From Bacteroidaceae bacterium (lineage in GTDB: Bacteria; Bacteroidota; Bacteroidia; Bacteroidales; Bacteroidaceae): DNA of 61,116 nt. How positions within the stretch are numbered: the stretch's first letter is position 1; each line of letters starts with the position of its first letter. The DNA lies in assembly GCA_963634425.1 (NCBI GenBank), contig CAVHCL010000128.1, positions 8,751 to 69,866 of the forward strand, in the 5' to 3' direction. The position numbers and the translations under genes were made by a program. Shown one piece after another: positions 30,607-50,500 of the stretch. The notes below the pieces were generated by a model. That model worked only from the letters and a program-made list of their open reading frames with translations. It did no database searches and was not told the DNA's origin.

Positions 30607-30653
30607 TACAAGAAACGCTGCTACCTCCCTCCCACAAAAACGCTAAGCCGTTA

Positions 30654-30685: not shown

Positions 30686-30720
30686 CAGCGAATAAAAGGA
30701 TAATGGGTGGCACTGTGCCG

Positions 30721-30808
30721 CCATAGAAGCTATAGAGAATCTATGAGATCTATAAGTCCTATAGGCTATAGAAAACCTAAAAGCATAGAGGCACTATAGA
30801 GCCTACAT
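30721..30808. repeat. Phased ~9-bp palindrome array #2 (about 10 degenerate units)
   Basis: CTATAG-type cores (CCATAG, CTATAG, CTATGA, CTATAA, CTATAG, CTATAG, CTAAAA, CATAGA, CTATAG, CTACAT) start near 30721, 30730, 30741, 30750, 30759, 30766, 30777, 30784, 30794 and 30803. Spacing is 7-11 nt with a mean near 9. The array ends 8 nt before the ATG at 30817. Confidence 0.85.
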
Positions 30809-30816
30809 AACATGTA

Positions 30817-32823: not shown

Positions 32824-32826
32824 AGA

Positions 32827-34017
32827 ATGAACGAGGGAACATTCCATACAAGCATACTCCCCTCCGCGGCCGCACTGCTTGCCGTCCTTGCGGCAGCGAC
32901 GCTGTGCTGCTGCTCCGACGACGTGCCCGACAACCCAAGCGGCAAGGAATACAGCATCTCGTTCAACACTGGCAGCGGCACAGAACAGGCGACACGCGCC
33001 GGTTCGCAGACGGGACTGCACACCCTCGGCCACGACCAGATAACGGTCTACGGCTACAAGACACTCAACGGCATGGTACAGAACGTGATGCCTGGCTACA
33101 CCCTCAACTACACAGAAAACTCCGCCAACTCTTCCACTACCAACACCACCGGCTGGGAGTACGTGGGACAAGGCACCGACTACTTGGGACAAATGCAGGA
33201 GATAAAATACTGGGACGGCAACAGCAGCGACTACCGCTTCTTCGCCGTGCTGCCCAACTATAAGAACAACCTGCGATACAACGGCAGCGTGATAGACGCG
33301 AGCACAGAGGTGTCGGCAGACGGCAGCTTCAGCATGGTGTTCGACGGACTGGAGTACATAACCCACACTAAGGACGGCAAATACAAAACCAGCGACGGCA
33401 CCGAGGTGGCAGAGAAGAACATCCCGATGTACGGTGCGTTGTGGCAGGGCAACCCTGCCAAGTGTTACGACACCCCGGTACAGTTGGTGTTTGTGAAACC
33501 TTACGCCCTCGTGCGCTTGGAGTTCGAACGCCCCGAGGGAACGTCAACGACACAGCTCGGCAAAGATGACGACGCAACGCATAACATCACCTTCGGTCCC
33601 AAGGACGGATCCGAGCTTACCGGCGACGGCTCAGTGAATGTCAGCTGGGACATGACAGGCAGCCGTGAGACAGCTACCGCCACGGCAGGAACGGTGACTC
33701 TGCCCACGATGACCCTCGACCCTCTGGAGCTCACCAACCAGAACGAACGCTATCAGGCATGGCCGGAATATCTGATGATTCCCACGTCCAGCACCGTGGA
33801 CTTCCTCTGCACCGCCTACGTGTACACCGACAACAGTTCGGGAGATGACTTCGACGAGCGCACAGCCGTCATCCCTGCGGAGTACATGAAGTGGAGACCC
33901 GGTTACCTGTACACATACGTGTTCAAAATAACAACGAACAACAAACTCGAGTTCAGTCATGCCGTGGAGGTGTACACCAAGTGGCAGGCAGGGTACGTGG
34001 ACACCACCACATGGTAA
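32827..34017 (+). CDS. Type V pilin-like lipoprotein, paralog 3
   Basis: Lipobox-like ATLCCCS. YSISFNTGSGTEQATR/AG. YMKWRPGYLYTYVFKIT. Only a 3-nt gap separates it from the previous gene. Confidence 0.7.
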   Translation: MNEGTFHTSILPSAAALLAVLAAATLCCCSDDVPDNPSGKEYSISFNTGSGTEQATRAGSQTGLHTLGHDQITVYGYKTLNGMVQNVMPGYTLNYTENSANSSTTNTTGWEYVGQGTDYLGQMQEIKYWDGNSSDYRFFAVLPNYKNNLRYNGSVIDASTEVSADGSFSMVFDGLEYITHTKDGKYKTSDGTEVAEKNIPMYGALWQGNPAKCYDTPVQLVFVKPYALVRLEFERPEGTSTTQLGKDDDATHNITFGPKDGSELTGDGSVNVSWDMTGSRETATATAGTVTLPTMTLDPLELTNQNERYQAWPEYLMIPTSSTVDFLCTAYVYTDNSSGDDFDERTAVIPAEYMKWRPGYLYTYVFKITTNNKLEFSHAVEVYTKWQAGYVDTTTW

Positions 34018-34038
34018 GAAGAACAAAAGGACAGAGAA

Positions 34039-35061
34039 TTGATGAAACGTGCACTCCATATAATATTCCCACTGCTGGCACTGCTGCCGATGGCATGCTC
34101 CACCGACGACGGCACACTGGAGACAAGGGTCGTGACGCTCGAAATCCCCGTCGACATATACCGTGCCAACACCTCCACTGCCACACGCGCCGCAGAGCAA
34201 GGCGACCCTGGCAATGACGTGGTGTTCGAGGCTCCGCTCTATCTCTACGTATACGCCTTCGTGTCGGAGACAGGCGGCAGCGAAGTGCTGACGCAGACTT
34301 TCACCTATACAGACGACCAGACGGCGACGGAATGGGAAAGACGCGACACGGACACCAAGGACGAGCGGTGGCACAAGAACGTGCGCGTGACGTTCCGCAT
34401 CAGCAGCGACTTCAACAAAGTCCTAGGCAAGAACCGCGTGTATGCCATAGCGTCGCGCACCGACCTCAGCGGCGTGCTGCCAGGCAGCATGGCCAACTAC
34501 ACCATGGAAAGGATAGAAGCCATAGAGTGCGACTTCTCTGCGTTCTCTTCCAGTCAACTGAAGGACATCTACTCAACGCCCGCCAACGACCGTTCCTCTC
34601 CAGCCGCAAGCACCGACAACGGCGTTATAATGAGCAACAACGACGTGCTGACATGTAGTGCGGTGAAGCTCTACCACGCTGCGGCGAAGGTGGACTTCAC
34701 ATGGGAGATACCGTCATCGCTGCGCCAGACGGTGGAGCTGCAGAAGATAGAGTGCACTGGGCTGCCCTCTAAGTGTAAGATATTCGTGCCCACGGGCAAC
34801 ACCGCCGGCACATCCTCCTCCGTGGTCTTGGGAGAAGGTATGGACAATCCGTCGTTTGAAGTCAACGAGGGCAACAAATGGACAGGGCGCGCCTACGCCT
34901 ATATGCTCCAGCCGCCGTCGCCCGGCACGATAAACTACACAGTCACCTACGGCGGTTCGGGCTTGCGTCCGCAGACAAACGGCGCAGTCACCCCCGCCAC
35001 AGACACCTACAGCAACATCTACACCGGTTGGTATCGGGTGATAGCGAGTGTGAAAGAATAA
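34039..35061 (+). CDS. Pilin-like accessory lipoprotein
   Basis: Lipobox LLPMAC. N-terminal strand plus Arg site ...NTSTATR/AAE. Beta-rich. It sits between the pilin genes and the giant gene. Confidence 0.55.
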   Translation: MMKRALHIIFPLLALLPMACSTDDGTLETRVVTLEIPVDIYRANTSTATRAAEQGDPGNDVVFEAPLYLYVYAFVSETGGSEVLTQTFTYTDDQTATEWERRDTDTKDERWHKNVRVTFRISSDFNKVLGKNRVYAIASRTDLSGVLPGSMANYTMERIEAIECDFSAFSSSQLKDIYSTPANDRSSPAASTDNGVIMSNNDVLTCSAVKLYHAAAKVDFTWEIPSSLRQTVELQKIECTGLPSKCKIFVPTGNTAGTSSSVVLGEGMDNPSFEVNEGNKWTGRAYAYMLQPPSPGTINYTVTYGGSGLRPQTNGAVTPATDTYSNIYTGWYRVIASVKE

Positions 35062-35085: not shown

Positions 35086-38000
35086 ATGCAACGCAAGATA
35101 GTCGGTTTACTGATATTTACAATCCTGTCGCTGCTCTGCCCCCCGGGCGGCGCGGCACAAGAGGTGCGGTACGTGTCGAAGGGAGGAGCCTATTCCAACG
35201 ACGGCAAGTCGTGGGAAAAGGCGAAGTCCAACATACAAGACGCCATCAACGACCTCGTGGACAACGGACTCACGGGCGAGGTGTGGGTGGCTCATGGCAT
35301 CTATACCCCTACGGAGAGCACCGAGTCGACAGGCGGCAGCACCCTCTACATGTCGTTCAAAATACCAGCCGGCATCAGTGTGTACGGCGGCTTCAAAGGT
35401 GACGAGACCTCCAAGGAAGCACGCGAGGAGAACGCCACCAAGTCCTTCGGCAACGTGTACAAGTACTCCACCATACTCAGCGGCGACCTCTCCTCCTCGG
35501 CGGAGTTTACATGGAACACCACCAGGGAACGGTGGGAGACCTCGTTCTACGGCAACTGCTACCACGTGGTGTTCTTCGCCACCAATGGCTTTGACGCCAC
35601 AGGGCGCGCCAAGCCCAACGGCGGAGGCAAGCAGTCGGCACTGCTTGAGGGCTGTGTCATAGAGCACGGTAACGCTTACAACTCCGACCTGTCTGGCCGG
35701 CCGCACAACGCCTACGGAGGCGGAGTGTATATGGTGGAAGGCTCGTGCCTGAAGAACTGTCTGGTGCGGCAGTGCGTGTCGTACCGCGACGGCGGAGGCG
35801 TCTATATGGACGGCGGAGGCTACATAGAGCATACTGCCGTGATGGACTGCCAGACTGTGGGCATAGGCATCTCCTACGGTATGGGCGGCGGAGTGTGCAT
35901 GGACGGACCCGACACTTACAGTGCGTCCTACACACCCATGGTTATGCGTCGCTCGGGAGTCTTCGGATGCGTGGGACGCATGGGCGGCGGAGTGGCGATA
36001 GTAGCCAACGACACCGACGGCGACAACAAGTACAAGATAGCGTGCAGTGCCGTAGTGGTGGCAAACAACACTGCCACCAACGAAGCCGGAGGCATATACA
36101 TGAACAGCGGCGGTGTCATAACGCAGGCAACAGTCGTCAACAACAAATGCAACGGTGCGGGCATCATAACCAACGGCATAGCCAACGGACGCTCTGCCGG
36201 CGTATACTGCCGCAACAACGCCATAGTGTCCAACTCCGTGCTGTGGGGAGGTGTGTGCAGTGCCAACAACGACATACAGTATGCCACCTCGCGCTCGGGC
36301 AGCGGCACAGAACTCAGCCCCAACATCATGTACACCTCGCTCAGCCAGTCGGACTACACGGACTGGAGCGGAGTGATAAAGGACAACGTGACGAAGCTGT
36401 CGAAGTACAACAGCAGTGCCGACGGTACCGCATACGCCTCCGAGGGTTATCCGTTGTTCTCCAACCCCACGCCCAACGCCGGTTATGTAAGCTCCGCACA
36501 GAGAACGCAGTTCATCTACGACGGTACAAGCAGCATAGCCGACGGAGTAACCCTCTACGACAACATGGGAGTGGAGGTCAACGCCGACAACATCAAACTC
36601 GGCACTACCTACTATACAGACGTAGCCATGCAGACCGTAGCAGTGGAGGGACGTGACTACACATACCTGGGTGCCGCCTACGACTTCCAGCCGCTGTCAC
36701 GCTCCTCGCTCAACCACCGTGGCGTGCTCACCATCGACCTCGACCGTTACGGACGGACTCCCGCCTATGAGATAGACAAGGACGTGATGGGAAAGAGTTT
36801 TACCCCACGCCCTACCCTCGGTGCGTACCTCACCACCCACACCACCATAGAGCCGCAGACCGTCACCGCCTCGGGAAAGACAACGGTCAACTTCTACGTA
36901 GCCCCCAATGACGACGGCGGCACAGAGTACACCTCCATAGGCTCAAGTTGGAACCAGCCGATACGTTTCTTCTCCGATGCCATGGCGTTCATCAAGGAGC
37001 AGAGCTACCCGTCAGCCACCACCGTCAACGTATATGTGAAAGAGGGAACGGTGAACAATACCAACACCTCCGCCGTAGGACGTATACGCACAACGGACAT
37101 AGGCATACCGGGCAATGTGAACATCTACGGAGGATATTCCTCCGACAACACCGGCACCGACCTTGACAAACGCAGCCCTACCGCCTGCCTTACCATCATC
37201 ACCGGCGACGCACAGGACGACTATGCCCTCAACGTATCCCACCTACTAACGTTCGACGGCACGGAGAACACTGTGCTTGACGGCTTCGCCATACGCAATG
37301 CCAACGCACGCGGCACGGAGAAGATAGAGGGCACACCCGTGACGGTGGGGGCTGCCATGACGTTCAACAACGCCACAGGTGTGAAGATACGCAACTGCAG
37401 CGTGGCTGGACACACCGCCAGCGAGGGTGCCGCCGCCGACATGACGGACTCGGAGGTGTACTTTGAGAACTGCATCTTCCACAACAACGAGAGCCGCACA
37501 CTGGATGCCGACGGCAATGCGGTGTCCAACACCGGCAACATCGTGGTGCGCACAGGTTCCACCGCCAGTTTCTCCCACTGCAACTTCATACGCAACGTGG
37601 GCAACGCCATCGACAGCTACGGCACGGTGAAGGTCGTCAACTCCGTGTTCTACGGCAATATGTCCGAACCGCTCGAAGACACACGCGGCAATGAGGACAA
37701 GGCTCTCACGGCGGTGCGTCTCTTCAACGGAGGCACGTTCACCGGCGACCACAACCTCTTCGACTCCAAATCGGCGGCCTTCATCGCCAACAACAGTCTG
37801 GACGGCACCAACGAGGCTATCCTCACCTACGCCTTCAGCAGCACGTCCACCACATACCCGCGTTTCATGAACCCCACGAAGAACGCCGGGGTCTCCCCAT
37901 CGGGCAATGTCACCTACTATGGGAAGGCGACATCCTTCATGCCGCACAACAACAACCCGATGGTAAACCGTGCCTCCACGGTGGACAGCGACGGCGCAGA

Positions 38001-41000
38001 GACCGACGACCATGCCGAATGGGGCACCGACATGACTGGCACTGTGACCCGCGACTACGGCGGTCTGCCCGACATAGGAGCCATAGAGAACCACGAGAGT
38101 GCCGTCGCCGACGAAGGCGAGAAAGCTTATCCCGACGGACAGAAAGCCTACGGCAAGGTATTGTATGTGCGCAACTACCGCAACGACGACGGCACGGTGG
38201 ACAACAGCACCACCGACCGCGACGGTTATTCATGGAGCAGAGCCATAAACGGCAACGCCACCTACAGCGGAGTGAACGGCTTCCAATATGCCCTCAATAT
38301 GGCAAACACCCTGTGGAATGCCGACCAAACGACACAGCACGAGGTGCACGTGGGCGCGGGCACGTACACCGCCAACCTCACATGGAAGGAAGGCGTGAAT
38401 GTGAAAGGCGGCTATCCTGCTGAAGGCAACCCCGGCGAGAACGAGCGCAGCATCTCCAACACCAAGGCTGAGCACATGACCGTCATCAACGGCAACGGCA
38501 ACGGACGCGTGCTTACGCAATATGCCAATTTCTCCACCGCCGCCGTCTTCGAGGGCTTTACCATACAGGACGGCTACACCACAGGGACTAATTATGGTGC
38601 CGGAGTGTATCTCCTGAGTGGCGGAACGCTGAAGAACTGCCTTGTGCAGAACAATACGTATAGTGCATCTTCAAGAAACACAAATTATTGTCAAGGCGGT
38701 GGAGGCATCTACATGAATGACGGTTCTATTGTCAAGAACTGCAAGATAATGAAGAACTACGTCTATGCCAACAACTACCAGTCATTCTTCGGGGGCGCTG
38801 GTGTGTATGCTGCGGGCGGCACACTCATCAACTCTCTCATTGTGGAGAACACCACAGACAGTCGGAAAAACAATTTGCTCGGTGCCGGTTTGTACATATA
38901 TCAGACCTCCAGCCTTTACAACTGCACCATTGCTTATAATGTGGCTGTAAGTGCGGGGCCGGATGGCGACTATGCCGCTACAGGCGGCGTGTGGGATGCG
39001 GCAGCAAAACATCAAGGTGGTGGAAAATACATCAATCAGTCTCGTTTCTACAACTGCATTATTTGGGGTAACTATGCCAATGGTAGAACAGCAGAGAACC
39101 TGATACAGGTCGGTATGTCCGGTTTCAGTGACCAAGCCGGAAATACAAATGATGCCTTTCATACATGTTACAGTTCGGCATGGTCAAAGACGTATGCTTC
39201 TGACGATGCTTCCGATGTCAACAAAGTGATGATTGTTGGCACGGGTACAGGTTCCGCTTCCAATTATCTTGCGTTCTATAACAACAGCAAAGCCAACGAG
39301 CCTTTCGTTCGCGATGACTACGACAATACAGACTACTCGCTGAAAGCCACCGCCACACAGTGTATCAACAAGGGATCGGAATACCAGGAGCTCACCAACC
39401 TTGACATCACAGTTGACATCAACGGCGAAGAACGCATACAGGACTGCACCATAGACAAGGGTGCATACGAGTACAACCAGTCGCTCGACATCAACCCTGA
39501 GATAATCACCACTACTGGCTCTACGAATAACAAACGTGTCTTTTACGTCACCCCCGACGGTCGTGGCACGGCATCTGCCGACAGTCCCGCCAACGCCGCC
39601 TGCGCCTCTAAGCTTCAGAAGGTGCTCGATGCAGCAGGACGCTACAAGTACAACTATCCGTCGGACACCGTCATCGTGAAGGTGGCAAACAGCGCATCCT
39701 TGGCTGCCGCAGGAGAGAATTTCCAGTACTATGCTTGCCGTACCACCGACGAGGGCGACCAAAGCGCACGTGTATGGTCCATCATGGTGCCGCGCGGAGT
39801 GGAGGTGTGGGGCGGATACACCGACACCTATACCTCTGACGACGACAACGGCTTCTACACCAAGGACTCGGCGGGAAACACCGCTGACAACCGCGACATC
39901 ACGGGCAACCCCACATACTTCGATTCCTACTACTACAACAAGAGCGAAAAACAGTACACATACACCTATCACGTGGTGACATTCACCGACCGTGTGTTTG
40001 ACGGCGAGGGCTACCCGTACGAGGAAGGCGACACCATTGGAGAGCCCAGCACATGGAAGGAAGGTGACAAATATATGTCGATGAGTGAGAAAACCGCCGA
40101 CCGCGCCGTCATAGACGGGCTGTTCGTCACCGGAGGCAACGCCGACGCACAAGTGCCGAACTCCGCCAACGCCACAGCCGACATCAACCAGTATGGCGGA
40201 GCCGCCATAGTCACCGACTATGCCCACGTGCGCAACTGCATAGTGCGCGGCAACAATGGCACCTACGGAGGAGCCCTCGCACTCACCCACAACGCCCTCG
40301 TCTCGGGATGTCTCATAGACCAGAACACCGCCGACTACGGCGGTGCGGTATATATGTTTGAGGAGGGCACAACCCTGTCCGACGGAACTGTCGTCGACAC
40401 CAAGTCCTCAGGCACCGCCGTCGACGAGAACATGGCTCATGTCTACACATCCACCATCGTCAACAACACCGCCAACAAACAAGGCGGCGGCATCTGGTTC
40501 GGACAGAGCAGCGACGACATGAACATCCGCGTCAACTCCTCGGTGATTTGGCAGAACAACAGTGTCAACCAAGCTAATGTGTCGGGACTCTACAACGCCA
40601 CCAAGGCCGCCGACGACCCGTTGACGACGATAGAGTTCTACCCCTTCGCCTTCTGTGCCGTGCAGAACCTGCTCGTGCCAGGACTCAACAACATACAGCT
40701 TGGAAACCTCAACTCCTCGGGTGTGCGTTTCGCCGCCAAGGGCAACGCCGATGACGACCACAACACCATTGCCAAGGAAAGCACGGACGACGACACACAC
40801 GGGAAGTACGACGACTTCGGCTACTATGCCCTCACTGACTACTCCTCACTGATACGCAACGGTATGCCCAGCGAGCAGTACTCCGCATTGGTGACAAGTG
40901 CTGGTCTGTCGGCATTCGACTTCGCCGCCGAAGACCGCCTCGTGTCCACAGGGAGAAACCGCACCAGCATAGAGATGGGAGCGCGTGCCTTGGACAAGAT

Positions 41001-44000
41001 ACTGGACAGCCGACAACTGATGCTGCGTATCTTCGTGGCAAGATCGGAAGACATTAACATGGATGCCGCACAGACCATGATGAATCTTGCCGCCACGGCG
41101 GCCGAAGGCAGTGACGAGGAGTACTACAGCCAGGAGGGCTCATCGTTCGCCTTCCCCATGCAGAGCCTGCAGGACGCACTTGACTACATAATAGAGGCGC
41201 GCTCGCTCAACGGGGTGAAGACGGGGCTCAACCAAGAGGGCTCCAACAACCTGCCCTTTGAGATATGCCTCGGCAGGGGCACATATTATCCCAGGCACAA
41301 CATAGACAACGTACACATCAACTCCTCGGGAAACAGTTTTGCCATACCCGAGGGCGTGAGCGTGTACGGAGGCTTCGCCATAGACAACCCCGACAGGGAG
41401 AAGTCTTACTTCGGCAGATACTACAAGGAAGGCGACAACCCCGCCGGCTATACCAATGTCCTGTCCGACAACGTCAAGTCGGTGGTAGAGACAGACAACG
41501 ACACCTTAGTGAGCATAGGAGGCAGTGACGGCTACGCCATAGACCAGCTGCCCATAAGCAAGTTGAAGCCACGCCGCCGGACGCTGGACAACAACGGCAA
41601 CAACATCATAGAGCCGTGGGAGTTCGAGAATCAGACCATACTCTCGGGCGACGTGAGCTACCAAGCCGCCAACGGAAGCTATCATGTGGTGACGCTCGTC
41701 GCCGACCAGAACGTGACGGGCATGCTGCCCAAGGCCGCCGAACCGACAAGCGACGCTTTGGATTACAGCGTCTACACGACAGCCAACGGCGAAGGCTCCT
41801 ACGCCTATGAGCAGGGGCAGGACATAGTGCTTGACGGACTGCAGATAGTAAGCGGCCATGCCTTACACTATACCGAAGGCTCCACCGACTATACGAACAT
41901 GTACAACCACTACCTCGGCGGCGGAATCTTCGTCAACGGCAACCGCTACTGCGACGACTACAACAAGAAAACTTCACTCGCCGCCGAAGGGTTCGGCACC
42001 ATAGAATACAAGCACAGCGGCATAAGCGAATCTGTGGGCTACCGCAACATACCCCTTATCATTGCCAACTGCAAGTTCACCAACAATACGGCAGGAGGTG
42101 GAGGCGCGCTCTGCTCCAACGGTCTGGTGAACATATACAGCAGCGTATTCGAACAGAACCGCTCTGTCAGCGGCTGTGAGACGCTGCTTGACATTAACGG
42201 CGACGAGAAGGAAGTGGCATACGCCGGCATAGGCGGAGCAGTGCTCGCCACATACCAGCTGAGAGTCTACAACACGCTGTTCGCCAACAATGAGGCGTAC
42301 GACGAGAGATTGAACGAGAAGCCTACCGAGTTCAAGAGGATGCTGGCCGACGAGACACGCTCACTTTTAGGCGGCGCGGGCGGTGCGGTGTATGTGGGAC
42401 GCTTTGGCTTCTTCCACATCCTCAACTGCGACTTTGTGCGCAACCGTGCCAACGCATACCCCGTGATGTTTACCATGAACCCCAACCGCGACTTCACAGA
42501 CGGACGCAACGGCGGCATAGGAGAGGGCAACCCTCTGCGTCCCACCACGACATACTACAACCAGTTTGTAAACACCCTGTTCTGGGGCAACGACATCAAC
42601 GACGAGATGAGCAAGAAATACGACAGTGTCAACCCGCTGTTCAAGTTCAACTCGCGTCTCTTCTGCAACTACGCTCCCGGCGAGTTCTCCGGCATCTACT
42701 CCGCTCCCGACTTCACCGACGACACCAAGATACCCTCCGACCTGACGGCTCTCGACGGCAACAGCACATCACGGCACTCCGACTTCGGCGAGACGGCATG
42801 GTACTGCGCTTATGAGTACGGGCGCGGTACGACACCGCACAACATCACGGACATGAGAAACCTTGGATTCCTCCCGCACGTTTACGCCCGCGACATGATA
42901 CACTCCGAAGGCGAGAAGAAAGGGGCGGACACCTACCAGAACTGCAACATACGCCTCAGCTCGGAGAACTCTGACCTCGAAGGTCCCAACTTCGTGAACC
43001 CGTCGCTGACTGCGGGCTACGACGGTTACTACGAGTCCGCCGACTGGAGTCCGGCACGCCTCTCCAACCTCGTGGACAACGGAGCTGGAAAGATAGCCCA
43101 AGAGATTACCCTCGAGAATGAGGTCTATAAGACTTCGTTCAAGGAGTACACGTCTGAAAACATCCCCTCACGCTCTATATATTACAATAATGGTAATGCC
43201 GACGGCTACACCACCGAGACCGTAGGCGACTACGACACCGAGGGAGTCTACACCACCACACGTGTGCTGAACACCTACGACAGAAACCGCACGTATCTGC
43301 CAGTGGGTGAGATGACGTATATGGAAAGCTCAGCCACGGGACAAGCCCTGTACCGCATCTCGTACGACCCAAACCCCACACACAACCAGACATACATAGA
43401 CATAGGCGTGTACGAGTATCCGCACACCGAGCTGCAGTATACCACTACCGGTGACGAGGTGGACATCCTTTGGGTGTCGCCGTTTGAGAAACCCGACAAC
43501 GGTCTGCCCAACGGCAGCGCATGGAGCCAGCCCACCAGCGACCTACAGCGTGCCATAGAGACACTGCTCGCCAGCCGCAACGGCCACCGCAAGGAGATAC
43601 GCCTGATGGACGGGCCGTTCACTCCCATCTACAACATAGAGGACAAATTGGCGTTCACCATTGACACCAAAGCCATCAACGAGTCGGTGACCATGCCAGT
43701 GAAGGCGTACGAAGAGGATGGTAAAACAGTGAAAGAATATGACACAGGCAAGGGCGTGGTGTCCCTCACCATAAAAGGCGGGTACAGCCGTGAACTCAAC
43801 AACGTGTACAACCCTTTGGAGTATCCCGCCGTCATACGCCAACAGGCACGATCCCATGCTACATCCGACAGGTGGAACTACCTCTTCTATATCCACGACG
43901 GCACCCAGCGCTACGGCTACAACACATACAACGAGGCGAACGGCTACGGCAACTACGCCGACAGCGACGGCGAAGGTTACAGCAAGACCGTGAACACCAT

Positions 44001-47000
44001 ACCGCTGCACATCGACGGTGTGACACTCGTCAACAACCAGGCCAACAAGGATGTCAACGGTGCCGCCATCTTCTACGGTGACCTTGCCGACGACATCACG
44101 GCTTCCACACCAGCCCACGTCTCGATAAACACCTATTACACTGACGCGGAAAAGTCCGAAGAGTCCGAGGAGCCTACACGCTACTACAACCGCACCGTGG
44201 ACAAGTACTACACCGATGCCACGTACCAGGTGGTGTCGGAGACGGAGACACCGTTTGTCTCTTACAAGTATGCGGAGACCACTGCCAACAAGATTGTCAT
44301 CAGCAAGAGCAAGATAATGAACAGCGGTTCCTATGCCGACGACGACCACTCCACCTGCGCCGTGTACATAGGAAAGAACGGAGGCAATGCGTTGCTCTAC
44401 AACAACGTGATGCACAGCAATACAGGCAATCCGCTTGTCTCGGCAGTGCCCACCACCATCGTCAACAACACATATGCCCTCAACAAGGGACGCGTAGACC
44501 TCAACGGCGAGAACACCAGAGTGTCGTCGCTCGTCATCAACCAAGACGACAACGACGGCAACTACGACCCCGACGGACCTATGCTTGCGCCTCACCACCA
44601 GCGGCGCGCCCCATCGGCTGCCACTGGCTCGGCAATATTCAACAGCGTGTTCTGGCGCAACAACAACGACGGTGTGCAGTTTGTACTGCCAGGGTTCGTC
44701 AGCGCACAGAAGTCGGGCTCCATATTCTCGCACAATGCCGTTACGGGGTACAGCACCGATGTGAGCGACTACTCCCTACCCGACATACCCGACCAGAACT
44801 ACAACGTGGGACTCTCTGACGAGAACAGCGACATCATCAACGGTCCCAACTTCGCAGACCCTAAACAGGAAGCCACGCTGGCAGACGACATAGAGTTGCG
44901 CAACTTCACTCTGCTGCCCTCACTGCGTCTGCTCAACAAAGGCAACAACACCCTCTACAACGACAACGTTATCAAGAACCCCGACACGTATAATATATAC
45001 GACCTGGCGTGGATGACCACCACACGCACCGATGCCGGCGGCGAGCAACGCTTCGTGTACGACATAGACCTCGGTGCATATGAATATCAGAACAACCTCA
45101 ACCGCATCATCTACGTCAACCCCAACGTGAGTGCCACGGGACTGGGCAACTCGTGGGCCGACCCTGTGGCTTACGGCAACCTGCAGGCAGCCATAGACCT
45201 TGCCGCGGTGTATCATGTGAACAACGTAGACGAAGAGGCGTACGTGTTCGTCAAGGGAGCCGGCACAAGCTCCGCCGGACTGCACCTCGGCGAGTCGGTA
45301 ATCATGCGCGACGGCGTGAGCGTGTACGGAAGCATACTCCCCACACGCACGGAGGACTGCCCATACACCACAACCTCCAGCAACGGCATACGTGAATATG
45401 CGCAGACCGAAATAGACAAGTACGTGGCAACCGTCACCGCCGAGCGCGGAGGACTTGCCGACCCCACCGCCGGCACCACCACCGTCAGCGGTATCAAGAC
45501 TCCCAGCTCCACGACGTTCAACAACACCAACGCCGAGATAGTGTCCGTAGTCGACGGCTTTGCCGTCACTGCCACCAACAGAAAGAACCCCTCGGGCACT
45601 GTCGCACAACCGGTAATAAACGTGCAGCCGTTTAACTCCGACGGACGCGTGGCTCTGCGCAACATCATAGTACACGGCAACGACTTGTCCGCCCAACGGC
45701 TCACCGACCTCGCCACAGTGGACAATGCCCTCATATATGAAGCCCTGTTCCGCGACAACAAGGTGGACGACACTGGATGCCATCTGCGCATCGGGCGCAA
45801 CGGCTATGGGGTGAACCTCACCGTAGAGGGCAGAACAGTGGGAGCAGACGGGAATGTCACCTACAACGGTACCGACAGCAAGGACGGAGACCATATCTTC
45901 AACTCGCTCGTCAACTATACCGGACACCCTGCCACAGAAAACACCCTCTCGGGCTATAATTACAAGGTGAGCGCCCCCAACCTCAACTACCAGCTCACAG
46001 AGATGTCAACACACATAGACCAGTGCGAAGCAGTCAACCCGATGAAGGATGTGCCGACACTGAAGCAGTTCATCAACTACGACACCGACCGCGACCTCCT
46101 TGGCAACCTGCGTCTGCTCAGGGGCGTGAGCACCGAAGACAAGGTAGACCGCGGTGCATTCGAGACATGGCGTGTGGACCAGGACGTTGTCTGCACGTCG
46201 AAGGATGCTGACGGCAACCTCACCAACTACTACCCACACGTCGGTTCGGTAGTCTACATCATGCAGGGCAACAGCCTTGTGATGGAGCAGTATGAGACCC
46301 AAGCCGCCGAAGGAGTGACAACGCAGACCTCTGGCACCGCCTTGCGCCCTGCCTATCTGCTCGTACAGGACGGCGCGTCGCTCTACGGCAACGGCAACGC
46401 CGTCAGCGTGAGCTATGTGGGAGTGGAGCGGGAGACGAGCAAAGACGGCTCCATGGTGAGTCTGCCTTACGCCATGCAGTATGGGGGGACGGACATCGCC
46501 TCCAACGGTACGGGAGCTCCGGCATACTCTGCCGACGGCGTGCTGACACTCTCCGCCGACAAGGCCGGGACATATTCCTACAACGGCGTGGGACGCTCGG
46601 CATGGAACTCCACATTCTACAACACGGCTTCGCCGCAGTGGACAGAACTCACCGACGTGACGACCGACTCCAACAAAGGCATACTCTACAAATCTGCCGC
46701 CGACAAGCTCTACCGTTTCACTGCACAGGGCGATGCCGACAACATGGACTCCTATGTGTACACCGAGACTGCAGGCGAGATAAGCAAGACGGTGGAACTG
46801 CAGCAGTACGACGACCGTGTCTCCACCGACGGCGCTGCGGACTTCACGGAGAAGGAGGACATGGGATGGAACTGCATCGGTCTGCCTTGGCTCGTGAGTG
46901 ACTATGACACATCAGCGAAGGAGACTCTCAGCGGTGACAGCCACTACAACATGGACATACCTCACACCCTGTGGCTGTGGTATGACGGCAAGACATATCT

Positions 47001-47475
47001 CGACGGCACAACGGCGGCAGACGGCGACGGTGGCTTCTACAGCGTAAGCTCGTGGGACACCTCCGACTGGCATCTCGCCACCGGCGACAAAGCTCGCATC
47101 TGGACAGGCGAGGGCATCTTCACACAGACCGCAGCCGTAGCGGACAAAGAGGAACTCACCTTCCATCGCCCGGTGTACAACCACACGACACGCGCCAAGG
47201 GAACGGGAGCTCCGTCCGTGCGGCACAACGTGCGCCGCTATGCCGCAGAGCCCGACATTGACGACGCACAGGGCGACATAGAGATACGGGTGTACGGCCA
47301 CGAAGTGTACATAAGCGGACTGCAAGGCGGCGAGGAGATAGACATCTACGACGCTTCCGGACGGAGACACGCCTCGGCAAAGGCGCAAAGCAAGCAGTAC
47401 AAGACTGTAGTAACCGCCGACGGAGTGTACATAGTAAAAGTAGACGGCAAGTTGAAGAAAGTGATAGTCAGATAG
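35086..47475 (+). CDS. Giant (4129 aa) secreted multi-module right-handed beta-helix protein with a T9SS C-terminal sorting domain
   Basis: Signal peptide MQRKIVGLLIFTILSLLCPPGGAAQ. Seven modules each open with a cap like (I/V)(Y/F)V..G.G.SW..P...LQ.AI and close with D.GAYE. Many GGG(V/I)Y and N-N-x-A beta-helix rungs. The last ~70 aa, ...EIDIYDASGRRHA...ADGVYIVKVDGKLKKVIVR, look like a type A T9SS CTD. Confidence 0.85.
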   Translation: MQRKIVGLLIFTILSLLCPPGGAAQEVRYVSKGGAYSNDGKSWEKAKSNIQDAINDLVDNGLTGEVWVAHGIYTPTESTESTGGSTLYMSFKIPAGISVYGGFKGDETSKEAREENATKSFGNVYKYSTILSGDLSSSAEFTWNTTRERWETSFYGNCYHVVFFATNGFDATGRAKPNGGGKQSALLEGCVIEHGNAYNSDLSGRPHNAYGGGVYMVEGSCLKNCLVRQCVSYRDGGGVYMDGGGYIEHTAVMDCQTVGIGISYGMGGGVCMDGPDTYSASYTPMVMRRSGVFGCVGRMGGGVAIVANDTDGDNKYKIACSAVVVANNTATNEAGGIYMNSGGVITQATVVNNKCNGAGIITNGIANGRSAGVYCRNNAIVSNSVLWGGVCSANNDIQYATSRSGSGTELSPNIMYTSLSQSDYTDWSGVIKDNVTKLSKYNSSADGTAYASEGYPLFSNPTPNAGYVSSAQRTQFIYDGTSSIADGVTLYDNMGVEVNADNIKLGTTYYTDVAMQTVAVEGRDYTYLGAAYDFQPLSRSSLNHRGVLTIDLDRYGRTPAYEIDKDVMGKSFTPRPTLGAYLTTHTTIEPQTVTASGKTTVNFYVAPNDDGGTEYTSIGSSWNQPIRFFSDAMAFIKEQSYPSATTVNVYVKEGTVNNTNTSAVGRIRTTDIGIPGNVNIYGGYSSDNTGTDLDKRSPTACLTIITGDAQDDYALNVSHLLTFDGTENTVLDGFAIRNANARGTEKIEGTPVTVGAAMTFNNATGVKIRNCSVAGHTASEGAAADMTDSEVYFENCIFHNNESRTLDADGNAVSNTGNIVVRTGSTASFSHCNFIRNVGNAIDSYGTVKVVNSVFYGNMSEPLEDTRGNEDKALTAVRLFNGGTFTGDHNLFDSKSAAFIANNSLDGTNEAILTYAFSSTSTTYPRFMNPTKNAGVSPSGNVTYYGKATSFMPHNNNPMVNRASTVDSDGAETDDHAEWGTDMTGTVTRDYGGLPDIGAIENHESAVADEGEKAYPDGQKAYGKVLYVRNYRNDDGTVDNSTTDRDGYSWSRAINGNATYSGVNGFQYALNMANTLWNADQTTQHEVHVGAGTYTANLTWKEGVNVKGGYPAEGNPGENERSISNTKAEHMTVINGNGNGRVLTQYANFSTAAVFEGFTIQDGYTTGTNYGAGVYLLSGGTLKNCLVQNNTYSASSRNTNYCQGGGGIYMNDGSIVKNCKIMKNYVYANNYQSFFGGAGVYAAGGTLINSLIVENTTDSRKNNLLGAGLYIYQTSSLYNCTIAYNVAVSAGPDGDYAATGGVWDAAAKHQGGGKYINQSRFYNCIIWGNYANGRTAENLIQVGMSGFSDQAGNTNDAFHTCYSSAWSKTYASDDASDVNKVMIVGTGTGSASNYLAFYNNSKANEPFVRDDYDNTDYSLKATATQCINKGSEYQELTNLDITVDINGEERIQDCTIDKGAYEYNQSLDINPEIITTTGSTNNKRVFYVTPDGRGTASADSPANAACASKLQKVLDAAGRYKYNYPSDTVIVKVANSASLAAAGENFQYYACRTTDEGDQSARVWSIMVPRGVEVWGGYTDTYTSDDDNGFYTKDSAGNTADNRDITGNPTYFDSYYYNKSEKQYTYTYHVVTFTDRVFDGEGYPYEEGDTIGEPSTWKEGDKYMSMSEKTADRAVIDGLFVTGGNADAQVPNSANATADINQYGGAAIVTDYAHVRNCIVRGNNGTYGGALALTHNALVSGCLIDQNTADYGGAVYMFEEGTTLSDGTVVDTKSSGTAVDENMAHVYTSTIVNNTANKQGGGIWFGQSSDDMNIRVNSSVIWQNNSVNQANVSGLYNATKAADDPLTTIEFYPFAFCAVQNLLVPGLNNIQLGNLNSSGVRFAAKGNADDDHNTIAKESTDDDTHGKYDDFGYYALTDYSSLIRNGMPSEQYSALVTSAGLSAFDFAAEDRLVSTGRNRTSIEMGARALDKILDSRQLMLRIFVARSEDINMDAAQTMMNLAATAAEGSDEEYYSQEGSSFAFPMQSLQDALDYIIEARSLNGVKTGLNQEGSNNLPFEICLGRGTYYPRHNIDNVHINSSGNSFAIPEGVSVYGGFAIDNPDREKSYFGRYYKEGDNPAGYTNVLSDNVKSVVETDNDTLVSIGGSDGYAIDQLPISKLKPRRRTLDNNGNNIIEPWEFENQTILSGDVSYQAANGSYHVVTLVADQNVTGMLPKAAEPTSDALDYSVYTTANGEGSYAYEQGQDIVLDGLQIVSGHALHYTEGSTDYTNMYNHYLGGGIFVNGNRYCDDYNKKTSLAAEGFGTIEYKHSGISESVGYRNIPLIIANCKFTNNTAGGGGALCSNGLVNIYSSVFEQNRSVSGCETLLDINGDEKEVAYAGIGGAVLATYQLRVYNTLFANNEAYDERLNEKPTEFKRMLADETRSLLGGAGGAVYVGRFGFFHILNCDFVRNRANAYPVMFTMNPNRDFTDGRNGGIGEGNPLRPTTTYYNQFVNTLFWGNDINDEMSKKYDSVNPLFKFNSRLFCNYAPGEFSGIYSAPDFTDDTKIPSDLTALDGNSTSRHSDFGETAWYCAYEYGRGTTPHNITDMRNLGFLPHVYARDMIHSEGEKKGADTYQNCNIRLSSENSDLEGPNFVNPSLTAGYDGYYESADWSPARLSNLVDNGAGKIAQEITLENEVYKTSFKEYTSENIPSRSIYYNNGNADGYTTETVGDYDTEGVYTTTRVLNTYDRNRTYLPVGEMTYMESSATGQALYRISYDPNPTHNQTYIDIGVYEYPHTELQYTTTGDEVDILWVSPFEKPDNGLPNGSAWSQPTSDLQRAIETLLASRNGHRKEIRLMDGPFTPIYNIEDKLAFTIDTKAINESVTMPVKAYEEDGKTVKEYDTGKGVVSLTIKGGYSRELNNVYNPLEYPAVIRQQARSHATSDRWNYLFYIHDGTQRYGYNTYNEANGYGNYADSDGEGYSKTVNTIPLHIDGVTLVNNQANKDVNGAAIFYGDLADDITASTPAHVSINTYYTDAEKSEESEEPTRYYNRTVDKYYTDATYQVVSETETPFVSYKYAETTANKIVISKSKIMNSGSYADDDHSTCAVYIGKNGGNALLYNNVMHSNTGNPLVSAVPTTIVNNTYALNKGRVDLNGENTRVSSLVINQDDNDGNYDPDGPMLAPHHQRRAPSAATGSAIFNSVFWRNNNDGVQFVLPGFVSAQKSGSIFSHNAVTGYSTDVSDYSLPDIPDQNYNVGLSDENSDIINGPNFADPKQEATLADDIELRNFTLLPSLRLLNKGNNTLYNDNVIKNPDTYNIYDLAWMTTTRTDAGGEQRFVYDIDLGAYEYQNNLNRIIYVNPNVSATGLGNSWADPVAYGNLQAAIDLAAVYHVNNVDEEAYVFVKGAGTSSAGLHLGESVIMRDGVSVYGSILPTRTEDCPYTTTSSNGIREYAQTEIDKYVATVTAERGGLADPTAGTTTVSGIKTPSSTTFNNTNAEIVSVVDGFAVTATNRKNPSGTVAQPVINVQPFNSDGRVALRNIIVHGNDLSAQRLTDLATVDNALIYEALFRDNKVDDTGCHLRIGRNGYGVNLTVEGRTVGADGNVTYNGTDSKDGDHIFNSLVNYTGHPATENTLSGYNYKVSAPNLNYQLTEMSTHIDQCEAVNPMKDVPTLKQFINYDTDRDLLGNLRLLRGVSTEDKVDRGAFETWRVDQDVVCTSKDADGNLTNYYPHVGSVVYIMQGNSLVMEQYETQAAEGVTTQTSGTALRPAYLLVQDGASLYGNGNAVSVSYVGVERETSKDGSMVSLPYAMQYGGTDIASNGTGAPAYSADGVLTLSADKAGTYSYNGVGRSAWNSTFYNTASPQWTELTDVTTDSNKGILYKSAADKLYRFTAQGDADNMDSYVYTETAGEISKTVELQQYDDRVSTDGAADFTEKEDMGWNCIGLPWLVSDYDTSAKETLSGDSHYNMDIPHTLWLWYDGKTYLDGTTAADGDGGFYSVSSWDTSDWHLATGDKARIWTGEGIFTQTAAVADKEELTFHRPVYNHTTRAKGTGAPSVRHNVRRYAAEPDIDDAQGDIEIRVYGHEVYISGLQGGEEIDIYDASGRRHASAKAQSKQYKTVVTADGVYIVKVDGKLKKVIVR

Positions 47476-47535: not shown

Positions 47536-50500
47536 ATGAGAAACTATATAAACAAGATATTGCTCTGCATGGTGTTCCTCATAGGCATCGTGGCGACTGC
47601 CGCTGCCGACAATCTCTATGTCATCACCGACGGCAACGGCAACTACCTCGCCAACAATGGAGGAACTCTCACCAATGCCACCACCTTCAACCCCAAAACC
47701 TGTATGTGGACGTGCTCGGGAACAAGCAGCGGAACACTGAGTAACCAAGGGCATTATCTGTATGGGGATAGATCATCTTTGTCGTTGAAAACATCTTCTT
47801 CCGACGGCACATCGTGGACAATATCCAACAACAGGGTGTATACCACACCTTTGTTTTCCACCTATTACATAACCTACAACAACAGCAAGTGGACTACGAG
47901 TCGGTCTGGCGGTGCTTCCATCTACTCAACAACCTTGAAGCAGACTGCCAAATCTGGCACCGTGACTGTGGAATACGACAACACACAGACATTCGAACGT
48001 GAGGGCGACACGCGCGACTATTATGTGAGCGCAGTGTCATACACCCCAGCATACAACACCTACACTTGGACGGAATCCGGCGGCACAAAGACTTGGTATG
48101 CGTCGTCTGACGACAGTTATGCGTCAGAAACAGCACCGTCGGAGGTAACCACAGTGTCGGCCTACGAATGGACTTCCAGCCATTCCAACATCTCCGTCAC
48201 CAAGGACAACGAACATCCCGAGCAGGCAACGGCTTCCTACGACACTAAGTTCTCCTCCGAGACGACCGTGACCATCACCGCCACAGCCACAATACCGCAG
48301 TCCGCCAGTGAGTTCATGACATCCGATGCCACCATGAGCGGCACTGTCACAGCCACGCTGCTGCCGCGCCACCTTACCGACATACAGATTTCCGCCAGCA
48401 CGACGGCACTCTACATAGGCGACACAGGGTCGTTGACCGTCACCACAAATTCCAACGGTGCGGTGACATACACCTCCAGCGACACGTCAATAGCGGAAGT
48501 CTCCACAGACGGAGTGATTACCGCCAAAGGTACTGGCAACAAAAACGCTGCTGAAGTGCAGATAACTGTAAGCACGTCGCAGACCGACGACTACGAGGCA
48601 GCCTCCGCCACATTGACCATTGAGGTGAGGAAACGTCCCGCAAAGATAGACCTCCAGTACGACAAGTCCTCTCTGACCTACGGCGAGGCGGTGCCTGTGC
48701 TCACCTCGTCCACGCTGACCGACGGCATCAGCGGCGAAGAGATTAATAAGGGGAAAATAAGCTTCTCGTCTTCCGTCACACACATACAGGCTGATGCCTC
48801 CACCGGTGCCATCACTGTAGACAAGGCTGGCATCGCCACTATCACCGCCACGTTTAGCGGCAACAAAACCTATGCGAAGGCGGAAGCGACGTTCGACATT
48901 ACCGTAAGCAAGGCTGCCACTACGCTCTCCTTTCCCGAGACGGACTATTTCGTGCTCTACACCCAAGGCTTCACCGCCCCAGCCGCCACGCTCACCCCTA
49001 CGGATGCCGGAACGGTGAGCTACAGCTGCGTATCAACTCCCGAGGGAGCTGTGACGATAGACGGGAGCACCGGAGCTGTGACCCTTAACGCCATGGAGGC
49101 GGAAGCCACCGTCACAGCCTCGTTTGCCGGCAACGACTGCTACGAGCCCTCCGAAGCATCGTACAAGCTCACGGTGAGCACACGCGCCATCCCCACCATA
49201 ACCGCCACCGTGCCCTCGTCACTTTACGTGGATGACTCTCGTACGGTAAGGGCCTCTACCAACAGCTCCGCAGGTATCGTCTACTCCTGCGACGACACGG
49301 ATGTGCTCACCATAGACGAGGCTGGCAAGATGACCACCGTAGGCGAGGGAAAGGCCGTGGTGAAGATTACCTCAACGGAAGACGACGATTACATAACACT
49401 GACCAAGGAGTACACGGTGGAGGTGAAACGGTATCCCACGGAACTCATGGTGACTTATCCCTACGACATCTACCACACCGACTACGAGGGGCAGATAATG
49501 CCCTCCGTGACACTCCGTGAGACAGTGAACAACTCTCTGATAGGCCAAAACGAATTAGGTGGAGAGGTCACGTACAGTGCTGTGCCGAGCACAGTGCTGA
49601 CAGTGGACGATCTGACTGGAGAGGTGACAATAACAGGCAACGGAACTGCGGTCATCACAGCCTCTTACGAGGGCAACCACAAATACGAACCGTCGTCGGG
49701 AACATTCGTCATGCAAACACACAAGGTGGCAGGCCCAGGCTCCTTCATCAGACTGAAAGACCCGGACGGCAACTATCTGAATACCAATGGGACCACCGTC
49801 AGTGTGACCGCCGACGAAGACGCGTCCTCTATAATATGGTATGGGAAAGACCGTTCACTGCTCTTCTACCAGTGCGGGCTTTATCTGAAAGACACCTCAC
49901 CGGCACTGATGTCCCCTATAGATGTCGGCGAAAGCGGCAACAGTTTCTCGCTCACCCGTACGGGACATGTGTACACCGTCAGCGACGGCACAGGCAGTCT
50001 GACTTCAGGGAGCAACAATGAATGGACTGTGGAATTTGTAGAATACCTGCCGCTCACGTTCAAAAGTGCCGGCTACGGTTTCTCCACCATCTACTGCCCC
50101 TGCAACCTGTCGAGCCCGGCAGGAGTGGTGGCATACTATCCCACAGATCGTAATGCCGACGACACTGGTGCCGCCGACTTCGTGATAACGCTGAAGTCCA
50201 TGCCGGGCAACTTCATACCCCATGGTACTCCTACTGTGCTGCACACGCAGTACGTGGGCACGTACAACTTCCACATCATAGAGGAGGATGTGTACGACAT
50301 CACCGACCGTTGGGACGGACTCGCCGGCACACTGCCCACGTTAAACACCGCCTCGGCATACTCGGGTACACAGTGTCCCTACACCCTGCAGCCCGACAAG
50401 TCGGAGTCAGCCGGCTTCTATCCGTGGAGCAGTCAACGACACACTACAATAGAGCCTTTCCGCTGTTACATACCGGGCGAAAACGCCGCCAATGCCAGGA

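Follow-up and report, generated by a model that had tools for sequence, protein, structure and literature searches.

What does a single gene of more than four thousand codons encode, and what might its product do for the bacterium that carries it? We investigated this for a giant gene in a 61,116-nucleotide stretch of a Bacteroidaceae contig (the whole stretch analyzed, hereafter the window). When the frame was read over the whole gene (35086..47475, + strand), it proved to be single and uninterrupted, with 4,129 codons. An earlier note, made from the sequence alone, had described the product as a concatenation of seven beta-helix modules with N- and C-caps, followed by a separate region of ~360 aa and a C-terminal sorting domain (CTD). 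HMM searches, profile comparison by hhalign and a model of module 1 bore out the modules; hhalign, TIGR04183 and Foldseek did the same for the two terminal regions. The layout is thus confirmed as a signal peptide, seven diverged beta-helix modules (M1 to M7), an unrelated tail domain and a type IX secretion system (T9SS) CTD:

35086..35160, +, Sec-type signal peptide, aa 1-25, MQRKIVGLLIFTILSLLCPPGGAAQ (by eye from the translation)
35161..36882, +, module 1, aa 26-599, with strand-helix N-cap, predicted right-handed beta-helix and degenerate C-cap TLGAYL (HMM, AF2, Foldseek)
36883..38151, +, module 2, aa 600-1022, C-cap DIGAIE (HMM, hhalign)
38152..39531, +, module 3, aa 1023-1482, C-cap DKGAYE (HMM, hhalign, NCBIfam)
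39532..41019, +, module 4, aa 1483-1978, degenerate C-cap IEMGARAL (HMM)
41020..43458, +, module 5, the longest, aa 1979-2791, C-cap DIGVYE (HMM, hhalign)
43459..45099, +, module 6, aa 2792-3338, C-cap DLGAYE (HMM, hhalign)
45100..46185, +, module 7, the shortest, aa 3339-3700, C-cap DRGAFE (HMM, AF2, hhalign)
46186..47265, +, beta-rich conserved tail domain, aa 3701-4060, not a beta-helix module (hhalign, alignment of relatives)
47266..47475, +, T9SS type A C-terminal sorting domain, aa 4061-4129, and stop codon (TIGR04183, Foldseek)

All seven N-caps lie in frame 0 at the positions first proposed for them and yield the peptides read there; they follow a strand-loop-helix pattern, V-x-Y-V...G-x-S-W...L-Q-x-A-I. 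The modules close with the pattern [D-x-x-G-x-x-R]...D-x-G-A-Y-E, and the seven proposed C-cap positions land on D-x-G-A/V-Y/F/I-E or on the degenerate forms of M1 and M4. Linkers of ~8-25 residues connect each C-cap to the following N-cap. Module 5 carries inserts, among them an EF-hand-like loop at aa 2163-2189. At the N-terminus, the alignment of the giant with its orthologue L014 begins at residue 20/21.

We then asked whether the modules are related to one another. An HMM built from homologues of M1, with the giant itself left out, matched all seven modules in the same order, so that the internal repeat signal on which the earlier reading depended is present. This HMM covered M1 over aa 27-581 and matched M2 at aa 613-840 and 847-999, M3 at 1089-1462, M4 at 1548-1832 (i-E 1.9e-26), M5 at 2044-2110, 2164-2363 and 2325-2666, M6 at 2809-2852 and 3089-3332, and M7 at 3340-3423, with i-E values across the modules of 1e-14, 1.6e-14, 1.9e-26, 4e-11, 4e-6 and 1e-7. 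Residues 600-4129 scored 240.4 bits against it, compared with -27 for the reversed sequence and at most 3.5 for 100 local shuffles. Per-module profiles built from orthologues were compared with hhalign, which aligned M1 to each of M2-M7 from the N-cap onward with a probability of 96.4-99.9% (M2, 99.6%; M3, 99.9%; M5, 99.7%; M6, 96.4%). M6 also aligned to M2 (98.5%), and M7 to both M2 and M3 (98%). These sequence comparisons indicate that the modules are anciently diverged copies whose similarity is far above chance.

The fold was predicted directly for M1, whose AF2 model (pLDDT 78, pTM 0.83, high over residues 1-430) is a right-handed beta-helix with an N-terminal capping helix. Its significant Foldseek matches in the PDB are beta-helix proteins only, including lacto-N-biosidase LnbX, pectin methylesterases, Pel9A, rhamnogalacturonan lyase and AlgE4. 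The expectation that every module would model as a right-handed beta-helix is thus supported for M1 by AF2 and Foldseek, and M2-M6 are inferred to be beta-helices by homology (hhalign at least 96%). A model containing M7 reached a pLDDT of ~80-90 over residues 1-260, with a strand-helix-strand pattern. Distant relatives of M1 bear Beta_helix, Chlam_PMP (PF02415) and Por_Secre_tail domains and are annotated as choice-of-anchor Q or parallel beta-helix repeat proteins, and 22 GGA(I/L/V)-like motifs are spread across M1-M6. In Pfam and NCBIfam scans of the whole giant and of each module, the only matches were sub-threshold Pmp matches, choice_anch_Q and the CTD. The best PF02415/TIGR01376 scores were 18.5 on M5 (cutoff 20.6) and 13.5 on M4 (cutoff 15). 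NF041518 (choice_anch_Q) scored 31.6 bits on the whole giant (cutoff 25; best stretch aa 1426-1464) and 18.4 bits, under the cutoff, on M3 scanned alone. Neither PF13229 (Beta_helix) nor a related Pfam model exceeded its threshold on the giant, whole or per module; PF13229 is passed by the equivalent of M2 in an orthologue (P0137). Sequence and profile searches of the PDB with the M1 family and with M7 plus tail returned nothing relevant.

The region after M7 is of a different kind. Its hhalign probability against every module is at most 1.2%, which rules it out as an eighth module. Many of its residues are invariant over 16 relatives (for example DMGWNCxG and YPHxGSVVY). Its AF2 model is poor (pLDDT ~40-75), Foldseek on the M7-tail-CTD model returned CTD matches only, none informative for the tail, and a sequence-profile search found no relative of the tail in the PDB. 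The single-module relatives P0072-P0074, L021, L036 and L044 match only M7, the tail and the CTD, and on this sequence evidence M7, tail and CTD form a unit that occurs alone in such proteins.

HMM scoring and structure comparison agree that the giant ends in a T9SS type A sorting domain. TIGR04183 scored 27.5 bits on aa 4061-4129 scanned alone (cutoff 23) and 18.1, under the cutoff, within the whole giant; PF18962 was not passed (20.4, cutoff 27). The top Foldseek matches, at a probability of 1.00 and an rmsd of 2.3-5.0 Å, were the RgpB CTD (7pq4 and 5ag8), the RemZ and RemA CTDs (8gl8 and 8gl6) and PorZ (5m11). GVYIV and KKVIVR of the giant's CTD fit motifs D and E described for such domains (PMC11969387). 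The 8gl8 and 8gl6 structures show the RemZ and RemA CTDs within SprA complexes. T9SS machinery genes are absent from the window, which we count against the surface-adhesin reading proposed below.

How widespread is this architecture? Collinear orthologues of ~4,000-4,200 aa occur in dozens of Prevotella and other Bacteroidales genomes, one of them an isolate. The cultured strain Prevotella brunnea A2672 is among the carriers. The giant shares 26-79% identity per module with them, and conservation is about equal in all modules, M4 being the best conserved, with 19% of its positions at least 90% conserved. The orthologue group, with its fixed gene cluster, spans Prevotella and its relatives among the Bacteroidales of gut, rumen and mouth. 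An assembly artifact, whether a chimera or a repeat that was collapsed or expanded into an apparent gene, has a negligible probability and is ruled out by the collinear orthologues, which are full length with identical module order in more than 28 independent assemblies, including the isolate genome. No long DNA repeats were found inside the giant gene, which also argues against a chimera and excludes recent tandem duplication or repeat-driven misassembly. Recent duplication is further excluded by the divergence between modules, which equals that between distant orthologues.

The head-to-tail array had been thought unusual, a view that did not survive a broader search. Exhaustively searched, the module profile matched 208,771 representative proteins; the best 150 of these are all long arrays, of 1,861-7,843 aa with 6-26 matched stretches each, and with a conservative sub-HMM the median number of N-caps per protein was 6. 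Nor is the seven-module giant itself rare, given its orthologues in dozens of Bacteroidales genomes. The giant is therefore a fresh member of a widespread family, with a design often seen among Prevotella-like bacteria of the gut and mouth. The family was not described in the literature that we found when searching for choice-of-anchor Q, for DUF5119 and for giant beta-helix T9SS proteins of Prevotella.

The giant gene sits in a conserved eight-gene cluster that resembles, by analogy of its organization, a type V pilus operon:

26375..35061, +, upstream set comprising a DUF3575 protein, a DUF5119-like lipoprotein and four lipoproteins (Pfam, lipobox N-termini)
28819-30549, 30817-32823 and 32827-34017, +, three paralogous lipoproteins (sequence comparison)
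34039-35061, +, 340-aa lipoprotein (lipobox N-terminus)
47536..50673, +, downstream conserved neighbor, a 1,045-aa Ig-like protein (Big_2/Big_3_5 Pfam matches sub-threshold)

The upstream genes lie close together and share the strand of the giant gene. A Big_2 protein is also found 3' of the orthologue in L002, and the C-terminus of the 47536..50673 protein resembles both a T9SS CTD and the C-terminus of the protein encoded at 57357-60890. Scanning the cluster for promoters and terminators gave results no better than those on shuffles.

Together, these observations lead us to propose, with a probability of about 0.6, that the giant is a T9SS-exported, surface-anchored, rod-like adhesin built from seven beta-helix modules. 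The Sec signal peptide would carry the protein into the periplasm, and the 69-aa type A CTD would direct its passage across the type IX translocon before being cleaved off. Judging from the behavior of Prevotella and Porphyromonas cargo, the new C-terminus would be tethered to the cell surface. The mature protein would be a chain of seven right-handed beta-helix modules joined by short linkers, with the non-helix tail domain adjoining the anchor and M1 outermost from the cell. Such a chain could form a semi-rigid fibril tens of nanometers long, a rough figure based on ~100 rungs of 0.48 nm each. Its likeliest role would be to adhere or to bind glycans without catalysis, in concert with the lipoproteins and the Ig-like protein that the cluster encodes. 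In support of a non-catalytic role, an F5/8 type C (discoidin) lectin domain sits inside module 3 of the orthologue P0222, which we count for the adhesin reading. A lectin assignment was also considered for a ~160-aa insert in close orthologues and was not sustained, the insert giving only a weak RicinB match (E = 0.03).

The "filament-length adhesin or enzyme array" envisaged at the outset thus remains plausible in its first half and fares poorly in its second. It could be argued that one or more modules are surface-displayed beta-helix lyases, hydrolases, esterases or epimerases degrading plant or host glycans: the best Foldseek matches of M1 are carbohydrate-active enzymes, the Prevotella lineage degrades glycans, and M4 and M5 keep many conserved charged residues (Arg, Asp, Glu). 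Yet the enzyme matches of M1 share only ~10% identity at TM-scores of 0.2-0.46, as expected from generic fold similarity, and profile searches of PDB sequences with the M1 family retrieved no enzyme. No Pfam or NCBIfam enzyme family, CAZy-type families included, matched any module up to E = 10, and the search for retained catalytic residues came out negative for the M1 family, which lacks an invariant D, E, K or H. Gly and Asn make up most of the conserved positions. The conserved cluster also contains no SusC/SusD or CAZyme genes, and we consider an enzymatic array very doubtful.

The gene neighborhood raises a different option, in which the giant is a T9SS-delivered accessory or tip of a type V-like pilus made from the upstream lipoproteins, comparable to Mfa5 in the Mfa1 fimbria of P. 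gingivalis. The beta-helix rod would then be held on the pilus and not on the cell surface, or would be required for pilus assembly. Several features of the cluster agree with this. The order DUF3575, DUF5119-like, four lipoproteins and a ~4,000-aa giant is kept in L055, L053 and L056, with tight spacing. A lipobox Cys is present in five of five upstream proteins (the DUF5119-like protein and the four lipoproteins), followed in the four lipoproteins at 28819-35061 by an Arg ~25-35 residues downstream, and C19 and R49 are nearly invariant in the 340-aa family. Three of the lipoproteins are paralogous to one another, and B. thetaiotaomicron tables place DUF3575 genes near Mfa1-type fimbrilin genes. 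Mfa5 itself has a T9SS CTD, and its gene closes a pilus operon in which the other subunits are lipoprotein precursors trimmed by gingipains (PMC7835359). Against this, none of the upstream proteins matched fimbrillin, Mfa or FimA families in Pfam or NCBIfam up to E = 10, and sequence and profile searches linked none of them to a solved pilin. The DUF5119 match is below the Pfam cutoff (23.1 compared with 27), the giant lacks a vWA domain in Pfam scans of the whole protein and its modules, and single-module relatives are found in other gene contexts. We therefore hold a pilus accessory to be possible but rather improbable. A related and unlikely idea is that the eight-gene cluster encodes an undescribed hybrid Prevotellaceae appendage, combining a type V-like pilus or platform of four pilin-like lipoproteins with a T9SS-delivered beta-helix rod and with the Ig-like protein as a second T9SS cargo. 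If this were true, a lipoprotein-derived pilus or platform would carry, or depend on, a beta-helix rod tens of nanometers long.

Returning to the surface-anchored adhesin, the giant belongs to a very large class of multi-module beta-helix surface proteins named only "hypothetical protein" and with no solved structure detectable by sequence. Since the orthologue group and its cluster are conserved across Prevotella and its kin, the giant is likely to be one of the main surface structures in a lineage that is abundant and host-associated. Its ligand, once identified, could help to explain Prevotella adhesion and colonization. Those who study T9SS cargo or beta-helix adhesins will not find the architecture surprising.

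Several known systems share parts of this design. NF041518 describes the same D-x-x-G-x-x-R ... D-x-G-A-Y-E cap closing a Pmp-like beta-helix, with various C-terminal anchors; this model is, however, one short domain without a seven-module array, tail domain or operon, and it aligns only to the M3 cap. We found no publication on the choice-of-anchor Q or right-handed parallel beta-helix repeat classes of NF041518. Chlamydial Pmp proteins share with the giant the beta-helix passenger-type repeats, the GGA(I/L/V)-like motifs and a presumed adhesin role, but consist of one helix where the giant has seven capped modules. The giant is exported by a T9SS CTD and lacks the Pmp-type autotransporter barrel, a C-terminal beta-barrel of this kind being absent from Pfam and NCBIfam scans and from Foldseek matches.

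SprB and RemA of Flavobacteria are, like the giant, repetitive T9SS-CTD surface proteins of several thousand residues, and the giant's CTD structurally matches the CTDs of RemA and RemZ. SprB and RemA are made of Ig-like or lectin repeats and act in gliding motility, whereas the giant uses beta-helix modules; we know of no link between the giant and gliding. Rhombotarget A (9cdu/9cdv), a single capped beta-helix, is the top TM-score match of the M1 model (TM 0.60 on target length), at ~12% identity and with no sequence-profile relationship. It is a single-module Acinetobacter protein with a sorting signal different from that of the giant. Finally, P. gingivalis Mfa5 is also a large T9SS-CTD protein encoded 3' of lipoprotein genes in a surface-appendage cluster (PMC7835359). 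Mfa5 is built from vWA and Ig-like domains with an isopeptide bond and its neighbors are pilins, whereas the giant is built from beta-helices and follows genes that are not demonstrably pilins.

The giant gene (35086-47475, + strand) is a single ORF without interruption, comprising 4,129 codons, with its start codon 24 nt past the stop of the preceding gene. All seven N-caps placed by the earlier note fall in frame, and translation recovered the peptides quoted for them. Its C-caps read D-x-G-(A/V)-(Y/F/I)-E in modules M2, M3, M5, M6 and M7 and take degenerate forms in M1 (TLGAYL) and M4 (IEMGARAL); a D-x-x-G-x-x-R-like stretch lies ahead of each, and linkers of 8-25 residues lead to the next N-cap. 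Inter-module BLASTP gave weak, collinear matches (M1 versus M5, E 6.5e-9, for example). We then ran an HMM of 32 module 1 homologues, the query left out, against the giant. It matched all seven modules in register from N-cap to C-cap (i-E 1.9e-26 to 4e-6) and scored 240.4 bits on residues 600-4129, against -27 for the reversed sequence and at most 3.5 for 100 local shuffles. An HHrepID-type comparison with hhalign, using one profile per module from 36 orthologues, linked M1 to M2-M7 at probabilities of 96.4-99.9% over 170-420 columns, with alignments beginning between cap positions 2 and 16 (at 47 for M4). This confirms the seven-module repeat. At the DNA level, the sole repeat within the gene is a 31-nt family (35361-35391, 37104-37134, 41343-41373 and 45303-45333; 68-87% identity), which encodes a conserved first-rung motif, P-x-G-(V/I)-x-(V/I)-Y-G-G, in modules 1, 2, 5 and 7.

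We modeled module 1 with AlphaFold2 from a 33-sequence alignment (pTM 0.83; residues 1-430 mostly above pLDDT 85). The model opens with a strand and a helix at its N terminus and continues as many short strands, and all its significant Foldseek matches in the PDB are right-handed beta-helix proteins: LnbX (lacto-N-biosidase), pectin methylesterases, Pel9A, AlgE4, rhamnogalacturonan lyase, tailspikes and Rhombotarget A. The last has the top TM-score (0.60 on target length), and all of them share ~10% identity with the model. The N-cap therefore corresponds to the strand-helix cap typical of these helices. Sequence profiles of the M1 family and of M7 plus tail matched no solved structure in the PDB, and neither the whole giant nor any single module had a significant Pfam match, Chlam_PMP repeats appearing below threshold only. 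The NCBIfam model choice_anch_Q (NF041518) scored 31.6 bits against a cutoff of 25, the aligned stretch being the module 3 C-cap. Among distant sequence relatives of M1, the domains PF13229 Beta_helix, PF02415 Chlam_PMP and PF18962 occur, and depositors named these proteins "choice-of-anchor Q" or "parallel beta-helix repeat" proteins. The M2 equivalent in the orthologue P0137 exceeds the Pfam Beta_helix threshold, and 22 GGA(I/L/V)-like motifs occur across M1-M6. The beta-helix interpretation of the earlier note is thus upheld for M1 by modeling, and we infer from homology that M2-M6 adopt the same fold.

The rarity attributed to a seven-module array was not borne out when 1.84 billion representative proteins were searched exhaustively with HMMER. 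The module profile matches 208,771 of them at E <=1e-3 and 41,656 at <=1e-30, and the best 150 are all multi-module proteins of 1,861-7,843 aa with 6-26 matched stretches. A conservative N-cap sub-HMM, which detects four of the seven caps in the window protein, found a median of 6 and a maximum of 14 N-caps per protein among these 150, most of which have 4-13 C-cap motifs; many are orthologues of the window protein (for example P0137, P0162, P0188 and P0222). A T9SS-type CTD terminates at least 58 of the 150, and the remainder end otherwise, which fits the name "choice of anchor." None of the nine protein clusters examined had a better name than "hypothetical protein," and literature text searches found no paper on this module family. 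Altogether, the window protein is a Pmp-like beta-helix surface protein of the "choice-of-anchor Q" type in a T9SS form, a new addition to a class that is both widespread and unannotated.

Scanning genomes with the M7 plus tail profile yielded 50 loci, nearly all from Prevotella, Bacteroidaceae, Paludibacteraceae and other Bacteroidales MAGs, with one isolate, Prevotella brunnea A2672. ORFs of at least 4,000 aa are found at 28 of the 50, most of these lengths being lower bounds set only by the 10-kb flank; complete orthologue ORFs measure, for example, 4,078, 4,183 and 3,463 aa. Orthologues follow the window protein collinearly along its full length (BLAST segments of 26-71% identity), and their modules stand in identical order and are about equally conserved (26-79% identity where covered). 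Together with the absence of long DNA repeats inside the gene, this rules out an assembly chimera and indicates an old origin for the seven-module layout. In the short relatives (~720-770 aa), a signal peptide is followed by a single M7-like module and then by the tail and CTD. This makes that unit the core, to which M1-M6 have been added N-terminally.

The closest orthologues (63-73% identity) lie at L003-L011, L016, L017, L020 and L022, loci from CAV... "cleanbin" assemblies with MAG titles of Bifidobacteriaceae, Lactococcus garvieae, Faecalibacterium prausnitzii, Gemmiger, Lachnospiraceae and Spirochaetota. Because a T9SS cargo gene is foreign to these taxa, the contigs look mis-binned or the records mislabeled. 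At another locus (L001, 8191-12283), the 760-aa relative P0062 begins inside the M7 equivalent and adjoins an integrase and type I restriction-modification island; it looks like a giant gene truncated by mobile-element insertion.

Translation gives the giant a Sec-type signal peptide at its N terminus. Its last 69 residues, scanned alone, score 27.5 bits against TIGR04183 (T9SS type A sorting domain; cutoff 23) and fold as a beta-sandwich in a second AlphaFold2 model. In the PDB this sandwich most closely matches the RgpB CTD, the CTDs of RemA and RemZ in complex with the SprA translocon, and PorZ, in agreement with the CTD first proposed. The C-terminal sequence ...DGVYIVKVDGKLKKVIVR fits motifs D (GxY then Ile) and E (basic residue) of cargo proteins from Prevotella intermedia, a species that cleaves off the CTDs and glycosylates the new C terminus (PMC11969387). 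Between M7 and the CTD, the tail (aa 3701-4060) is strongly conserved (e.g., DMGWNCxG and YPHxGSVVY). It matched none of the seven modules by hhalign (probability <=1.2%), so this ~360-aa region, already set apart in the earlier note, is genuinely a different domain. Its AlphaFold2 model is poor (pLDDT 40-75), its sequence profile found no PDB relative, and Foldseek on the tail-containing model was uninformative for the tail.

Such an array could serve as an adhesin or as a series of enzymes. Enzyme families matched no module. Invariant positions in the M1 family (33 sequences) are Gly, Asn, Pro and Val, with no invariant Asp, Glu, Lys or His, and across 36 orthologues Gly and Asn dominate the conserved positions of every module, as expected of a structural helix with Asn ladders. 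In M4 and M5, several Arg, Asp and Glu residues are nonetheless conserved; the enzyme reading is therefore unsupported, though some module may still be catalytic. Inserts in module 3 of orthologues point to glycan binding as the family's putative role. In P0222, the insert is a discoidin (F5/8 type C) lectin domain above the Pfam threshold (aa 1181-1308), located in the module 3 N-cap region, and closer orthologues (L013, aa ~810-1045; L014, aa ~1019-1178; L015) have at the same site a ~160-aa insert with W-containing repeats and a weak RicinB_lectin_2 match only; the window protein carries neither. The giant is best read as a semi-rigid, fibrillar adhesin exported by the T9SS and anchored at its C terminus, whose fibril would, by a rough estimate of ~100 rungs of 0.48 nm each, be tens of nm long.

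Module 4 has the top share of conserved positions among the modules (19%, ten Arg included), and its N-cap (39532-39700, ~aa 1500-1535; …NAACASKLQKVLDAAGRYKYNYP…) is nearly unchanged even in orthologues ~30% identical overall. Module 5 contains an EF-hand/dockerin-like loop, RRRTLDNNGNNIIEPWEFENQTILSGD (41572-41652, aa 2163-2189), with Arg, Asp and Glu positions conserved in orthologues; the loop is a possible calcium site. Comparable D-x-(D/N)-x-N-G-x-I-E-x-W-E loops are also present in unrelated giant arrays of modules, P0156 among them.

The interest of the protein lies not in its module count but in an orthologue group of ~4,100 aa that is deeply conserved in Prevotellaceae, with its tail domain and a fixed surrounding gene cluster. 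The giant is gene 7 of eight closely spaced same-strand genes:

26375-27589, +, DUF3575 protein
27484-28761, +, DUF5119-like lipoprotein (Pfam match sub-threshold)
28819-30549, +, lipoprotein, paralogue (35% identical to 30817-32823)
30817-32823, +, lipoprotein, paralogue
32827-34017, +, lipoprotein, paralogue
34039-35061, +, 340-aa lipoprotein
35086-47475, +, giant
47536-50673, +, Ig-like protein with a CTD-like (T9SS-like) C terminus

The same order is found at loci L053 and L056 and at L055, where a DUF3575 gene precedes genes for products of 389, 610, 661, 397, 353 and then 4,004 aa; at L002, a Big_2 protein follows the orthologue of the giant. Further along the window, a 1,177-aa ORF (57357-60890) has a signal peptide, no Pfam match and a C terminus resembling that of the 47536-50673 product; it is probably the window's third gene for a T9SS cargo.

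All five upstream lipoproteins have a lipobox Cys, and the four encoded at 28819-35061 have an Arg ~25-35 residues downstream of it; in the family of the 340-aa lipoprotein, C19 and R49 are nearly invariant. Type V pilin precursors are lipidated and later trimmed after an Arg, and the upstream lipoproteins resemble them in this layout of Cys and downstream Arg. Searches of the upstream proteins against pilin families, PDB entries and profiles gave no match, and we consider it unlikely that the cluster is a type V pilus operon with the giant as its Mfa5-like cargo. The cluster nonetheless resembles such an operon, and there is a precedent in Mfa5 of P. gingivalis, whose gene encodes a protein with a T9SS CTD and lies in an operon of this kind (PMC7835359).
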